Part shown: in pieces, positions 1-4,129 of the stretch | How positions within the stretch are numbered: the stretch's first letter is position 1 | Layout of the letters: every line of letters begins with the position of its first letter | Assembly: GCA_044507735.1 (NCBI GenBank) | Contig: JBIQJB010000009.1 | Coordinates: forward strand, 8,746-72,745 | Direction of reading: 5' to 3' | DNA: 64,000 nt | From: Nitrosopumilales archaeon | Lineage (GTDB): Archaea > Thermoproteota > Nitrososphaeria > Nitrososphaerales > Nitrososphaeraceae | Notes under the pieces: model-generated | What the model was told of the DNA's origin: nothing | What the model saw: the letters and a program-made list of their open reading frames with translations, nothing else | Database searches by the model: none | Program-made: the position numbers and the translations under genes

Positions 1-73
1 CCGCCAGCACGATGACTGGCCGGTTCAATCGAAGTGATTTCAAGAACTCTTCTTTTGCGCTGTATGTTCTCAT
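1..73 (-). CDS. 5' part of an unknown protein running off the window (MRTYSAKEEFLKSLRLNRPVIVLA...)
   Basis: ATG at 73 lies 2 nt after the stop of the 76..291 ORF and the frame stays open to the window edge, so it looks like the third gene of an operon. Confidence 0.55.
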   Translation of the reverse strand, partial: MRTYSAKEEFLKSLRLNRPVIVLA

Positions 74-75
74 CC

Positions 76-291
76 CTACTCACTTTCGTCGTCCCAAGAT
101 ATTGCGTTCGTGCCCTGGACGAGCATGTTACAGTTGTCACAAAAATACCTGCAATTATCAAAGTAGTCGTAGGACTGCTCCAGTGGCGAATCGCAATCGG
201 GACACGACATTCCATGATGGCCATGATCTTCCATCTCTGCTGACAATTCTGGGGCAACAAGCTGTTGCCTTGATTCTCTTGTCATGCCCAA
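76..291 (-). CDS. small Zn-ribbon protein
   Basis: CPDC...CDNC pair and an HGHH patch; 8 nt downstream of the PIN gene. Confidence 0.7.
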   Translation of the reverse strand: MGMTRESRQQLVAPELSAEMEDHGHHGMSCPDCDSPLEQSYDYFDNCRYFCDNCNMLVQGTNAISWDDESE

Positions 292-299
292 TTTCTCCC

Positions 300-776
300 C
301 TACTGATACACCCTAAAGTTGCCCGGAGTGCATGTCATGATTCCTTCCATCCTTGCAACCATTCGCAAATCGCTATCGTATGTCACGAGTACCGCGCCGA
401 GATTCTTGCAATAAACAAGGTAGATATTGTCTGGAGAATGACAAAGGTTCAGATACTTGGCCTTTAGCTCGTCAGCTTCCGACATTATCCTGCCAACATC
501 TTCGCCGCTGCATTGGCCGACATAGTCTATCTGTCCCATCATTGAGAATGATTCTATTAGTTCCAAAGCCCGTTCGGTGTCAATCTTGGCAACCCTGGAC
601 ACTTCTTTAATCAGGATGCTGGGGACTACTATTCTGATGTCCTTGCGATGAGCAATCTTTTTCCTCAGCTCCAGAGCTTCCGGCTTGTTCTCGTATGCAC
701 TAACTATCGTGCAGGTATCGAGCAGTATCAGTGTCTGTTGCTGTGATGACAGGAGCTTTGCGAACTGGTTCATCAT
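300..776 (-). CDS. PIN-domain (VapC-like) ribonuclease
   Basis: ILLDTC N-terminal strand, ILIKEV, PDNIYL and LVTYDSDL give the acidic PIN motifs. Confidence 0.85.
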   Translation of the reverse strand: MMNQFAKLLSSQQQTLILLDTCTIVSAYENKPEALELRKKIAHRKDIRIVVPSILIKEVSRVAKIDTERALELIESFSMMGQIDYVGQCSGEDVGRIMSEADELKAKYLNLCHSPDNIYLVYCKNLGAVLVTYDSDLRMVARMEGIMTCTPGNFRVYQ

Positions 777-810
777 GACGACAGTTATGGTGGAAATTTA
801 TTTATTGATG

Positions 811-836
811 TTGACGTCAATAACGTTAACAACGTT
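811..836. promoter_or_regulatory. candidate operator in the divergent promoter
   Basis: Palindromes TTGACGTCAA (811-820), TAACGTTA (821-828) and AACGTT (831-836); ACGT cores at 814, 823 and 832; next to TTTAAA. Confidence 0.45.
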
Positions 837-866
837 TAAATCATTAACAATGTAAGCATTAGTTGC

Positions 867-1628
867 ATGCCTACAAACCTTCGAGTCCACGTCTCACCGG
901 TTGGATTTGATCCTCAGGAGCGCGTAACGGCCCCACTGATTGAATACCGCGCCGACAAGGTTTATCTTGTATCAAAAAGCAAGGACGATTCTGCCGCTCA
1001 CCGGCTGAAACAAGTCCGCAAGGCCCTTGAAAAGCATCCACACATTGAAGTCCAAGATGTCTATGTGAATATCTGGGATCTTTTTAGCTGTCTAGAAAAA
1101 TTCCGGACAATCTTTGACTCGGAGAAAGGTAACCACATTCACGTCAATGTCTCCACCGGGAGCAAGATTGTATCTATAGCAGGTATGCTAGCGTGCATGC
1201 TCTGGCGCGGCACTCCTTACTACGCCAAACTGGATTATAATGGTAGTGGACCTTCTTCCAGTCCAGAACAGCGCAGGGTAATCGCTACTGAATTCCTGCC
1301 TGTTTATCAGATAAACATGCCCCAGCCAGAATTGCTGCAAGTACTGTCGATTGTTCATGGTAACGGCGACAGAATTAGTAAGAAGGAATTGATTGAAGAA
1401 TTGCAAGGTCTGAGGATGATTCCGGTGTACGGTCCATCCCAAACAAAGAGTGCTCCACACAGCAGATTGCGAGCGATACTCGAGCCGCTTGAGAATCACT
1501 GGCAATTTGTCCAGGTCGATGCCAGGGGGAGAAGAAGCCAAGTTTCGCTTACTGAGCAGGGAAAAAGGGCTTTGAGAATATTTGGCAGTGGGGAAATGCT
1601 GGCGCAGCAACAATATCGCACGCCATGA
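867..1628 (+). CDS. CARF-like Rossmann + winged-HTH transcriptional regulator (DUF6293/HFX_2341/Csa3-like)
   Basis: VHVSPVGFD..ERV, ADKVYLV and VNVSTGSKI motifs; C-terminal ISKKELIEEL...VSLTEQGK winged helix. Confidence 0.8.
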   Translation: MPTNLRVHVSPVGFDPQERVTAPLIEYRADKVYLVSKSKDDSAAHRLKQVRKALEKHPHIEVQDVYVNIWDLFSCLEKFRTIFDSEKGNHIHVNVSTGSKIVSIAGMLACMLWRGTPYYAKLDYNGSGPSSSPEQRRVIATEFLPVYQINMPQPELLQVLSIVHGNGDRISKKELIEELQGLRMIPVYGPSQTKSAPHSRLRAILEPLENHWQFVQVDARGRRSQVSLTEQGKRALRIFGSGEMLAQQQYRTP

Positions 1629-1794: not shown

Positions 1795-2352
1795 CTATGC
1801 TCGTTTCTTATAGATCAGGACGGCCGCTCTTTCCAGATTCTTGACTGCGTTTGAGACTGATACCAGCGCTATGCCGGTCAGTATTCCTCCCACTCCAAGG
1901 GCCAGAACTGTCACGGAACCAAAATACAATCCATCCTTCAGAGCGAGGGCACCGTACCCTACAGAGTGGATCAAGTTTGCTGTATGCCTGAAATCATCTC
2001 CGATATTTTGCATGTTGTCCGCCAAGGCCTCTAGGTTCGAGCCCATGTCATTCAGCTGGTTCCTCTGTGATGACAGATCGAAAAGTCCCACGCAGCCTCC
2101 GTCCTCAGAACAGGGGAGGGAATTGCCAAAATTCTGCAGTCTGATGCCAACGTCCCTCAGGCTGCTTGAACCGCTATAGAACTCACCCTCTGTTCCGGGA
2201 TTGTAGTTTATCAAATCCCATCCAACCTTATTCAGGCTGTCCAAGGCAGGAGGCAACACTATGATGAATGTGTATGCGGCAAGACCCGTCGTTCCGATGC
2301 CCAAGATTAGGACCACTACCGCCAGCGCGGCTATTACGCTATTGGGTCGCAT
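1795..2352 (-). CDS. hypothetical membrane protein (two TM segments flanking a helical extracellular loop)
   Basis: Hydrophobic N- and C-terminal segments; heptad-like central region with a C-x5-C loop. Confidence 0.7.
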   Translation of the reverse strand: MRPNSVIAALAVVVLILGIGTTGLAAYTFIIVLPPALDSLNKVGWDLINYNPGTEGEFYSGSSSLRDVGIRLQNFGNSLPCSEDGGCVGLFDLSSQRNQLNDMGSNLEALADNMQNIGDDFRHTANLIHSVGYGALALKDGLYFGSVTVLALGVGGILTGIALVSVSNAVKNLERAAVLIYKKRA

Positions 2353-3241
2353 GTCATCGCCCTCCCCGTCCTTTTTCTTGCGCCGTCTGTCGTCTTTTGA
2401 TCATCTGTCTGGCGAATGGCGATGGATTTATTGGATCTGCTGGAGCTGCCGACATTGCTTTGGGCTGAATCGTTGATGAGTATTGATCGCTATCAATTAG
2501 CATGTTCAACTTACTTTGGTAGAACTTTTACGTCATTCGAAGAAAAAATAATTAAGACAATCCTGACGCGGGGTAGCAGAACGGTTTACTAGCATGATAG
2601 GCGCGATTCGGACTCTGGTTCAAATGTTGGCACAATTTTCCTTTAAGATGCCAAAGTTACTCTGGGCTACAGCGTCCTCTGGGTATTTGCATGAAGTAGG
2701 TCCTGTTCTAGAAGAGCAAATATGGTTCAAGGGGTGCGAGCAAAAGGCAAACAGCCTTCCATCTAATGCACTGGAACGCGCCCCTCTGCGATCTTCTCAA
2801 TATGGGCTAACACATCTCTACTGATCTCACACGCGCGAGTTTACACTGTGGGGATGCTCTTGCAGCAACCCTGATAGGTGTCTTTTAGATGATGACATGG
2901 AAAGCTCGCAGGCAGCGCCAGAAGCAAAAATCGGTCTGCCTCTCTTTGCACAGAGATAAAGAGGATCTAATCTGGTCATTCAATAATACCAACGAGATAA
3001 ATCCTGGGCAGCAGTAATGGAATTCCGCAATGAAAAAAATTGAGATGGGTTACCAGATGGTCTCTTTGGCAATGCATGCTTATATGGAACAGCTTGACCC
3101 ACTGGTGGCTACAAGGTCTGCAATTTCCTGAGCATTTTAGGTCGAGCTGGAATGATAAGTTCAGAACCAGCCTGCTAACTGAATCCTAGTCCAATATCCC
3201 GGTTCTGTTATATGCAATATTGCGCATGTGAACGTGTCCTG

Positions 3242-4129
3242 ATGATAAAGCGGGCTAGGCCGGTATGTGGGAATTGCGGCGACGGCCAAAAGGTAACTGA
3301 CACTGAAACGGGCGAGCTCATTTGTATCAACTGTGGCTTTGTCATACGAGAGCGCCTGGGCAACGAAGATGAAGGCTGGAGTCTACCTGATAGGGAGCCA
3401 GAAAGCAGATTGAGGACAAGCCCGACGTCACTTGCTCGCTCTGGCATGGGTCTCTCTACAATCATGGGGCGGCCAGATAGGAGCGGCGGCAGGGGGATCA
3501 ATGCAGCCATGCGGTCCACGTTCGACCGGCTCAGGGCGTGGGATTTTCGGATAAAGGGTCAGGACGAGCGGACTCTCCGGCGCGCATTTGTAGAGCTTGA
3601 CAGGCTTCGAAGCTCACTCGGACTGTCAGATGCTATGGTGGAAAAGGCAGCGTACATCTACAGACGGGCTCAGGAGCAAGGGCTTGTCAGGGGCAGAACA
3701 ATGCGGGCCGTCATGGGAGCAGCCATCTACATCGCGCAGAGAGAGATGGGCATCTCCGGCACGCTCGATGATGTGATTGCTGCAACCAACACGAAGGAGA
3801 AAGACCTCGCAAGATCTTACCGGATGCTCTTGCGGGAACTCGATCTGAAGGTGCCGATGCTAGATCCTTTAAAGTGCGTCTCCCGTGTGGCTGGCAGGGC
3901 CAACATCAGCGAGCGCACAAAGCGAAAAGCCATGGCTATCGTTTCCAACGTCATGAAGAAGGGACTTGCCGTTGGCAGGAATCCGATGGGTCTTGCAGCG
4001 TCTGTCTTGTACATCGCCTGCGTCAGTAGCGGCGAACCGAAGAGCCAGGCTTCGATTGCAAACGCTGCGGGAGTGTCGGAGGTAACGTTGAGAAAGAACC
4101 AGCAGATGATAATGCGGAAAGTGACCTAG
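3242..4129 (+). CDS. tfb: transcription initiation factor IIB paralog
   Basis: Zn ribbon CGNC...TGELICINCG, two cyclin repeats, GRNPMGLAA and AGVSEVTLR HTH. Confidence 0.95.
   Translation: MIKRARPVCGNCGDGQKVTDTETGELICINCGFVIRERLGNEDEGWSLPDREPESRLRTSPTSLARSGMGLSTIMGRPDRSGGRGINAAMRSTFDRLRAWDFRIKGQDERTLRRAFVELDRLRSSLGLSDAMVEKAAYIYRRAQEQGLVRGRTMRAVMGAAIYIAQREMGISGTLDDVIAATNTKEKDLARSYRMLLRELDLKVPMLDPLKCVSRVAGRANISERTKRKAMAIVSNVMKKGLAVGRNPMGLAASVLYIACVSSGEPKSQASIANAAGVSEVTLRKNQQMIMRKVT

Follow-up and report, generated by a model that had tools for sequence, protein, structure and literature searches.

What does a CARF-type sensor protein with a wHTH (winged helix-turn-helix) domain do when it faces, across a shared promoter region, an operon for a PIN-domain nuclease and a small zinc-ribbon protein? 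This arrangement was found at the left end of the DNA stretch analysed here, which comes from a soil ammonia-oxidising archaeon (contig C40, positions 8746-72745; 64,000 nucleotides (nt), hereafter the window). The window's own genome, G000, comprises 2.33 Mb in 55 contigs and is 97% complete; other genomes and loci are labelled with G and L numbers, respectively. We propose that the CARF-wHTH protein is a ligand-gated local regulator of an uncharacterised PIN/zinc-ribbon cassette for defence or stress, a reading to which we give about an even chance. The locus may then amount to a nucleotide-signal-inducible RNase module.

Four genes occupy the first 1628 nt. On the minus strand, the PIN nuclease gene (300..776; an open reading frame (ORF) of 158 amino acids (aa), PF01850) is followed by the acidic zinc-ribbon gene (76..291; an ORF of 71 aa from a TTG codon at 291) and by a rhomboid-family gene, of which the first 24 codons, the 5' end, lie in the window (1..73). 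The spacing is tight, with 8 nt between the PIN stop and the zinc-ribbon start and 2 nt between the zinc-ribbon stop (76) and the start of the third gene (73). A divergent control region of 90 bp (777..866), also recognised by alignment, is common to this operon and to the regulator gene on the plus strand (867..1628), an ORF of 253 aa assigned to the DUF6293/HFX_2341 family by Pfam, PADLOC and AlphaFold2 (AF2)/Foldseek. The ORF list and the upstream DNA confirm the four genes and the 90-bp divergent promoter region where the original prediction, a note made from the letters of this DNA, had placed them.

The regulator is a member of the named archaeal DUF6293/HFX_2341 family, on which our literature search found one experimental paper (PMC11434293), and hence is not itself novel. 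Its residues 6-121 match HFX_2341_N (PF19810; 97.6 bits against a cut-off of 30, 9e-28) and its residues 144-239 match the wHTH domain DUF6293_C (PF22665; 63.2 bits against a cut-off of 27, 3e-17). The Pfam Csa3_N match also lies above its cut-off (33.1 bits against 27) and the CARF_Card1 match under it (19.1 bits against 24.6). The NCBIfam Csa3 model (TIGR01884) reaches 30.9 bits, under its cut-off of 60.2, and the protein is therefore filed under DUF6293/HFX_2341 and not under Csa3. The PADLOC model PDLC01847 ('CARF3--CARF', in which 'CARF3' is a model name only) covers the full length of the protein (3.8e-54). A whole-genome family search found DUF6293 in a single copy in the window's genome (99.2 bits). 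Searched by sequence against PDB chains, the regulator profile gave only weak CARF matches (E about 0.1), so that a fold search was needed to place it. The AF2 model (predicted local distance difference test (pLDDT) score 91.7, 26 homologues) has a CARF domain at about residues 1-123 and a winged helix at about residues 144-240, the C-terminal part running helix-helix-helix-hairpin. The PDB matches listed by Foldseek for this model are CARF proteins, namely SSO1393 (2e-8), Sis0811, Csa3, Can2, Csm6 and Card1; SSO1393 and Sis0811 are ring nucleases, and the matched Csa3 structure is one with cyclic tetra-adenylate (cA4). The suggestion that 867-1628 encodes a CARF-like N-terminal half and a winged-helix C-terminal half is thus borne out by both AF2/Foldseek and the DUF6293 Pfam match.

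In the CARF superfamily, strand 4 is described as being followed by the signature [DN]x[ST]xxx[RK] (PMC4012209). The corresponding segment of the regulator, N94-V-S96-T-G98-S-K100, lies directly after the model strand 90-94, and an alignment of 26 sequences shows no variation at N94, S96 or G98 and at least 90% conservation of K100. Given this conserved signature, the ligand pocket looks maintained. At the end of strand 1, a position for a polar S/T in CARF domains, the window's protein has S10 where the family consensus is A, and P11 and G13 are invariant in the same alignment. The family member HFX_2341 of Haloferax mediterranei is described as behaving as a transcriptional repressor of many genes; its over-expression is reported to repress cas genes, HHpred similarity to Csa3a is noted, and the homologue is said to occur in species without CRISPR (PMC11434293).

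The link between this regulator and its cargo is conserved. Close loci, defined by a regulator with at least 61% identity to that of the window, were retrieved from species-representative genomes (L007, L008, L009, L010 and L023), from the genomes of relatives (G016, which is L010, and G049, which is L041/L066) and, through the PIN protein, from metagenomes (L029, L030 and L031). The PIN gene is divergently adjacent in all six close loci found through the regulator (L007, L008, L009, L010, L023 and L066), and the regulator is present in all three found through PIN. The zinc ribbon is present in eight of the nine; the contig of L031 stops just past PIN. The linkage of the regulator to the PIN/zinc-ribbon pair, whose conservation among homologues had been put forward as a test, is thus conserved; the arrangement recurs in 9/9 other close loci and is more than chance, although these counts were made by crude ORF calling among non-independent kin. 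The trio is accompanied by rhomboid and DUF72 genes in the window, L007 and L030, and at L006/L010 by a HerA/TrwB-like ATPase gene (Pfam) and a 369-aa ORF that we take, by reading its translation only, to encode an IS110-type transposase. A transglutaminase-like gene flanks L009, and genes for a DinB polymerase and a helix-turn-helix (HTH) protein flank L066. Because these surroundings differ, with at least four kinds found, the trio looks transferable, and regulator, PIN and zinc ribbon are a conserved accessory unit that probably moved between genomes. With the window regulator as query, a match was found in one of 24 congeners and in 0/16 genomes of other families. A high-scoring PIN orthologue occurs in 2/101 genomes of the order (G000 and G049), and strong zinc-ribbon matches in G000, in G049 and twice in G069, all of them adjoining DUF6293. 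Pattern searches of viral contigs gave 85 matches for PIN relatives and 18 for regulator relatives, none of which was confirmed.

The control region is itself conserved, with 34 invariant columns over six loci whose PINs are only 45-84% identical to that of the window. Sequence and alignment conservation mark an A/T-rich TATA-like box on the minus strand (795..806), whose distance upstream of the PIN start codon (776) is about 19-30 bp, as the putative promoter of the PIN operon, with a short or absent leader. On the plus strand, a second TATA-like box, TTTAAAT (835..841), lies 26-32 bp upstream of the regulator ATG (867) and is kept as TTTAAAT, TTTATAT or TTAATAT in the intergenic alignment. 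The assignment of promoter roles to such boxes rests on archaeal promoter geometry, and the two would fit divergent archaeal promoters with short or no leaders. Between them lie a perfect palindrome, TTGACGTCAA (811..820), and a putative operator on the plus strand (816..840) of a direct-repeat family, made up of three tandem 9-bp units, GTCAATA-ac, GTTAACA-ac and GTTTAAA, the third of which is overlapped by the regulator's TATA-like box. This overlap suggests autorepression of the regulator through the array. On the other side the array ends 9 bp from the PIN box, a position that would be compatible with either repression or activation. The string ACGTNAAYAACGT occurs twice in the 2.33-Mb genome, both times in this control region, and the pattern GTYAAYA-NN-GTYAAYA, with units 9 bp apart, has two genomic sites against 0-1 in three shuffles. 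A regulon search found that the operator motif marks no other promoter in the window's genome.

To place the PIN/zinc-ribbon pair among the cargo of the wider family, 24 more distant DUF6293 loci were compared, 14 from species-representative genomes and 10 from relatives (L011 and L042 encode the same protein). In six of them the regulator faces an operon of a multi-ubiquitin protein, a prokaryotic E2 (family E) and a (JAB-)ThiF E1. A TIR protein then follows in L015, L016 and L019, and L018 encodes a 541-aa protein that matches the PADLOC dCTP deaminase model (1e-149); no added effector was identified in L013 and L022. The operons of these six loci are a ubiquitin-like defence system under a CARF-wHTH regulator; their hosts are Nitrosopumilaceae, Nitrosotenuis and other Nitrososphaerota contigs. 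On a Methanoperedens contig (L012, 1061-4513), DUF6293 faces a DdmD-like helicase-nuclease of 1150 aa (PADLOC, 1e-48), and the Methanoperedens DUF6293 loci carry four to five in-phase GTTAAYA units upstream. On a Nitrososphaerales contig (L021, 64-4394), it faces a PbeA (5e-207) and PbeC (2e-69) pair. Other cargo of the distant regulators includes a ParE-like toxin, the S subunit of a type I restriction-modification system on a Clostridiaceae contig and, in L011 and L042, NurA with a 324-aa protein of no assigned family.

A maximum-likelihood tree of 31 DUF6293 regulators resolves three well-supported clades, and cargo follows the regulator clade. Clade I (support 99/95) contains all PIN/zinc-ribbon loci together with L011/L042 on a long branch, clade II (90/86) contains the defence cassettes, and clade III (100/99) contains Nitrosopumilaceae chromosomal copies, the two zinc-ribbon-linked copies of G069 and a bacterial contig. 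Upstream of each regulator gene, chains of at least two in-phase GTTAAYA units were scored with one mismatch allowed. Such chains are present for 8/8 PIN-clade regulators, for 7/12 loci of clade II plus L011 and for 0/10 loci of the third clade plus L025. Among 20,000 random 150-nt windows of the window's genome 41 contained such a chain, and none reached three units. By these results, members of the family tend to be local regulators, each with an operator of its own. Since related regulators, many of them preceded by repeats of this kind, stand before recognised anti-virus cassettes, we read the PIN/zinc-ribbon pair as uncharacterised defence or stress cargo of a portable ligand-gated switch.

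The PIN protein matches PF01850 with 42.7 bits against a cut-off of 23.6 (9.9e-11), the other listed Pfam matches being PIN_4 and PIN_12. It keeps its acidic catalytic residues: D20, E58 and D116 do not vary among 13 aligned homologues, and 11 of the 13 have D134. By sequence, its profile gave nothing significant against PDB chains (best E 0.018). Its AF2 model (pLDDT 86.9) is matched in Foldseek by minimal protein-only RNase P (HARP), by many VapC toxins and by Nmd4; as modelled, it is a generic PIN RNase fold, VapC/HARP-like, with no closer assignment. A Nob1-type endonuclease, which combines PIN with a zinc ribbon, was considered and rejected, as only PF01850, PIN_4 and PIN_12 are listed and the high-scoring orthologue was found in only two of the 101 genomes of the order, where a Nob1 gene would be universal and single-copy in archaea. 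A hidden Markov model (HMM) search found PIN in a single copy in the window's genome. In G076 (frameshifted), G095 and G123, PIN relatives with lower scores (49-67 bits) were seen next to clade III regulators or close to them, and in G089 a PIN gene follows a MazE-type antitoxin gene. The original calls of a PIN nuclease and a zinc ribbon are both correct.

The window's zinc-ribbon protein has two CxxC knuckles, C30-C33 and C51-C54. An in-frame ATG two codons in offers an alternative start that would give 69 aa, the length of a 99%-identical cluster, P0136. The pattern CPxC...L..YD...CxNC is invariant in eight family sequences, which also keep an acidic tail and all of which have an isoelectric point (pI) of 4.05-4.33 (about 4.1 in the window). 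Pfam gave sub-threshold zinc-ribbon matches only, and a profile search of a set of 5.8 billion proteins returned 19 clusters, none usefully named; the protein is a member of an unnamed small family. By HMM search, members of this family beside DUF6293 are confined to the PIN clade and G069. A zinc-ribbon ORF as the universal first gene opposite DUF6293 was rejected, as the small ORFs of L012, L020 and L022 lack CxxC pairs. A complex prediction for PIN and zinc ribbon scored 0.00 against a mark of 0.32, with the zinc-ribbon fold itself uncertain.

Zinc-ribbon homologues were also seen in other settings. G069, of another genus in the same family, has two DUF6293 paralogues, each facing an acidic zinc-ribbon homologue. 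One of these (L065, 6420-12500; G069:C34) heads a NurA-HerA-Mre11-Rad50 operon with no PIN, and a GIY-YIG nuclease and a DNA methylase are encoded on the other side; the second (L067, 3188-3382; G069:C64) likewise faces DUF6293. A second, weak relative in the window's own genome (C29:56061-56282; L068, 7062-7265; HMM E 3e-6, 67 aa) lies among purF-, purL- and purQ-like genes, adjoins a 69-aa ORF and has no DUF6293 link.

The third gene was read from the DNA upstream of the window (C40:8084-8818, minus strand). It encodes 244 aa, begins MRTYSAKEEFLKSLRLNRPVIVLAA and matches Rhomboid PF01694 (1.4e-7; 32.2 bits against a cut-off of 22.6). Rhomboids are defined by an HxxxxHxxxN motif, a GxSG motif with the catalytic serine and a later histidine in a hydrophobic segment. 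All three are seen in the translation, as HRSWDHLLAN at residues 65-74, GASG at residues 136-139 and a histidine in '...NVFVHGVAF...', and a 19-residue Kyte-Doolittle scan finds five separate hydrophobic stretches; by these motifs the product is a rhomboid-type intramembrane protease. The earlier idea that its 'RPVIVLA' leads into a P-loop is ruled out by the PF01694 match, and these residues belong instead to the first hydrophobic segment of the rhomboid-like protein. The gene that follows the zinc ribbon varies among the loci. It encodes a rhomboid in the window, L007 and L030, a broken rhomboid in L023, a UvrD plus PD-(D/E)xK helicase-nuclease of 933-1120 aa in L009 and L010, and a Pirin_C-like ORF in L066; no gene follows on that strand in L008. 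Among congeners the rhomboid was found in 1/40, namely as a broken copy.

If these parts act together, one or more regulator dimers would bind the repeat array, which overlaps the regulator's own TATA-like box and abuts the PIN promoter at its upstream edge. DNA binding would be altered, and the PIN operon so switched, by a small ligand in the CARF pocket that is probably derived from a nucleotide. As the effector, PIN would most likely be an RNase, with either invader RNA as its target or a slowing or killing of the cell as its outcome, and the acidic zinc ribbon would work with it as inhibitor or as targeting subunit. A bolder version, which we hold tentatively and consider possible rather than probable, makes DUF6293 the archaeal counterpart of the bacterial BrxR/CapW, that is, a portable CARF-wHTH switch that brings a tandem GTTAAYA operator before interchangeable immune cassettes (multi-ubiquitin-E2-E1 with TIR or deaminase, DdmD, Pbe and, at the window, PIN with zinc ribbon) and answers to a nucleotide-like, non-Cas10 alarm. 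The PIN/zinc-ribbon pair, with rhomboid or helicase-nuclease add-ons, would then be an unrecognised two-gene antiviral or abortive-infection effector of soil ammonia oxidisers.

Several observations weigh against a ligand-gated defence cassette. In the 97%-complete genome, no match was found to the Cas10 models (Cmr2 or Csm1), no DAC cyclase domain was found, and SMODS gave one match under its cut-off. None of PIN, zinc ribbon and rhomboid was matched by PADLOC, so a defence role for this cargo is argued by association, from the company that related regulators keep. For the Haloferax homologue, global rather than local regulation is described (PMC11434293). Two of the nine close loci look decayed: the L008 PIN is only 33% identical, is without the fourth acidic residue and has no Pfam match at E ≤ 0.001, and all genes of L023 are fragmented. 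PIN and zinc ribbon are also separable, as the zinc ribbon occurs without PIN in G069 and a PIN relative adjoins DUF6293 without a zinc ribbon in G095. Weaker PIN relatives occur in four other Nitrosopumilaceae genomes in an unrelated receiver-domain/ABC-permease context; at L072-L075 (G139, G136, G036 and G130), four genes form a conserved neighbourhood in which a protein of ~280 aa is encoded divergently from a distantly related PIN (139-142 aa), a receiver-domain protein and an ABC permease. Finally, because cargo tracks the regulator clades, 'portable switch' is an overview of the family and not a demonstrated recent swap.

The same genome search bears on a CRISPR-coupled, Csa3-type regulator, in which the CARF domain would sense a cyclic oligoadenylate from a type III system elsewhere in the genome and so couple the PIN RNase to CRISPR immunity. 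The similarity in fold to Csa3 (which binds cA4), to ring nucleases, Can2 and Csm6 would fit such a sensor, as would a CRISPR-like array at the edge of contig C12 (C12:53-4292), in which a repeat containing GGTTTGAATCGAACTATTATAG is present in up to 65 copies, and a Cas1 fragment with a stop codon on contig C17. The earlier statement that no CRISPR lies nearby stands for the window's own contig, C40, which is arrayless in a repeat scan of the 55 contigs. No cas-family Pfam matches were found in the ORFs of the 15 kb after the C12 array, a TraG/HerA-like ATPase is encoded near it (L032, 16366-18561), and Cas3-core matches in the genome are sub-threshold only. With no Cas10 found, there is no support for a type III system as the source of a cyclic-oligoadenylate signal. 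The NCBIfam Csa3 score of 30.9 bits against a cut-off of 60.2 also speaks against this coupling, as do the described occurrence of the Haloferax homologue in species without CRISPR (PMC11434293) and the neighbours scanned at 33 other loci, among which no cas-family Pfam match was found bar Cas4-like similarity inside PD-(D/E)xK domains. We regard CRISPR coupling as highly improbable.

Two further explanations were weighed. The first is a toxin-antitoxin or addiction module of three components, with PIN as a VapC-like toxin, the zinc ribbon as a downstream antitoxin without DNA binding and DUF6293 as the separate transcriptional regulator; its main role would be to stabilise the carrier island, and an external ligand would not be needed. 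Omega-epsilon-zeta, with its separate transcriptional regulator omega, provides a model for such a module, and many antitoxins and nuclease inhibitors are small and acidic, as is the zinc ribbon with its pI of about 4.1. VapC toxins and HARP are the nearest matches to the PIN fold, the catalytic acids are retained, the PIN and zinc-ribbon genes are 8 nt apart and occur together in 8/9 close loci, mobile-element genes flank some copies, and decay such as that of L008 and L023 is common in toxin-antitoxin loci. The claim that the locus has no antitoxin is not established: no ORF lies between the promoter region and PIN, yet the acidic zinc ribbon could itself be a PIN inhibitor. Upstream of PIN there is no DNA-binding antitoxin of the AbrB, RHH or PHD type, and the sole small partner, a zinc ribbon, is downstream, so the gene order is toxin-first. 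Zinc-ribbon homologues beside DUF6293 without PIN at two G069 loci, PIN relatives without a zinc ribbon in G095, a conserved CARF pocket that would have no role, and the lack of confirmed PIN or regulator relatives on the viral contigs searched also tell against addiction, which we consider unlikely. A DNA-damage or repair regulon, in which DUF6293 acts like Csa3a of Sulfolobus and PIN and zinc ribbon are nucleic-acid-processing helpers co-induced with end-resection enzymes, gains from the helicase-nuclease genes of L009 and L010, the G069 zinc-ribbon homologue heading NurA-HerA-Mre11-Rad50 divergently from DUF6293, NurA in L011 and L042 and the DinB polymerase gene near the L066 cassette. Csa3a, cited as a regulator of DNA-repair genes, offers a precedent (PMC11434293; PMC8844856). 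Yet the downstream gene in the window's lineage encodes a rhomboid protease and no repair enzyme, the cassette is rare and patchy in the genus, unlike a core repair regulon, and the PIN fold matches RNases and not flap endonucleases. UvrD-type helicases and NurA/HerA, moreover, also occur in defence systems, and the L009 helicase matches GajB models in PADLOC. A repair regulon is, in our estimate, distinctly unlikely.

Beyond the trio, a gene for a 185-aa protein (window 1795-2352, minus strand) is convergent with the regulator gene; the protein has N- and C-terminal hydrophobic stretches by eye and no Pfam match. L007 keeps it beside the regulator, as do L029 and L030, where the ORF has 198 aa. 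A gene for a TFB (TFIIB-type) transcription factor follows (window 3212-4129, plus strand). Some 5-8 kb upstream of the window start (C40:1000-4000), the GC content is 0.38-0.41, against 0.485 for the genome, and an ORF of 485 aa in this stretch matches HTH and Phage_integrase models weakly (E 0.002-0.005). The low-GC stretch may be the remnant of an integrated element near the cassette; no tRNA gene was found in the 11 kb examined there.

The nitrogen cycle of soils depends in large part on ammonia-oxidising archaea, and to our knowledge almost nothing is known of the control of defence and toxin genes in archaea beyond the Sulfolobales and the haloarchaea. The locus offers a small testable system, with a sensor-regulator of a barely studied family, a candidate operator of 25-30 bp and an assayable two-gene cargo. 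If the CARF pocket binds a signal in this genome, where no Cas10 was found, archaea would seem to have a nucleotide alarm pathway that is independent of CRISPR, and if the PIN/zinc-ribbon pair protects against viruses, it would add to the known defence cassettes. Should both fail, the locus would be no more than an accessory module of an ordinary, toxin-like kind that has its own regulator. What is known is the regulator family; its pairing with the PIN/zinc-ribbon cargo and the candidate GTTAAYA repeat operator were not met in our literature search, which found no paper on the trio or the operator by title or abstract opening and did not cover the 2020 CARF census.

Among known systems, HFX_2341 of Haloferax shares both Pfam domains with the window's regulator, a CARF-like sensor half and a winged helix, and, as described, likewise occurs without an adjoining CRISPR-Cas locus (PMC11434293). 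It is presented there as a vertically inherited global repressor of 308 aa (PMC11434293), whereas the window's regulator has 253 aa, is rare in the genus, is locked to a PIN/zinc-ribbon pair and has a candidate operator only at its own promoter. Csa3a and Csa3b of the Sulfolobales (PDB 2WTE and 6WXQ), which as CARF-wHTH proteins regulate DNA-repair genes and type I-A CRISPR, resemble it in architecture, in fold (Foldseek E about 1e-7) and in the pocket motif after strand 4. The window's regulator differs in its NCBIfam Csa3 score below cut-off, in having no adjoining cas genes and in a genome in which no Cas10 was found. Csa3 sites are described as palindromes (PMC8844856), in contrast to the direct 9-bp repeats of the candidate operator. 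The WYL regulators BrxR and CapW are reported as ligand-sensing factors at the edge of interchangeable defence cassettes that they presumably control (PMC9122601; PMC9122588). They are bacterial, experimentally shown and of the WYL fold, whereas DUF6293 has the CARF fold and its parallel with them is drawn from gene neighbourhoods. The cassette is like VapBC in its PIN fold with four acidic residues and in the small partner gene in the operon, and unlike it in lacking an upstream DNA-binding antitoxin, in having a downstream zinc ribbon as partner and in being regulated, apparently, by a separate CARF-wHTH protein. Systems that join a CARF sensor and a PIN domain in one polypeptide share with the window the functional tie between CARF and a PIN nuclease; at the window it would run through transcription, with a CARF-wHTH protein regulating a PIN gene of its own standing, rather than through allostery within one polypeptide.

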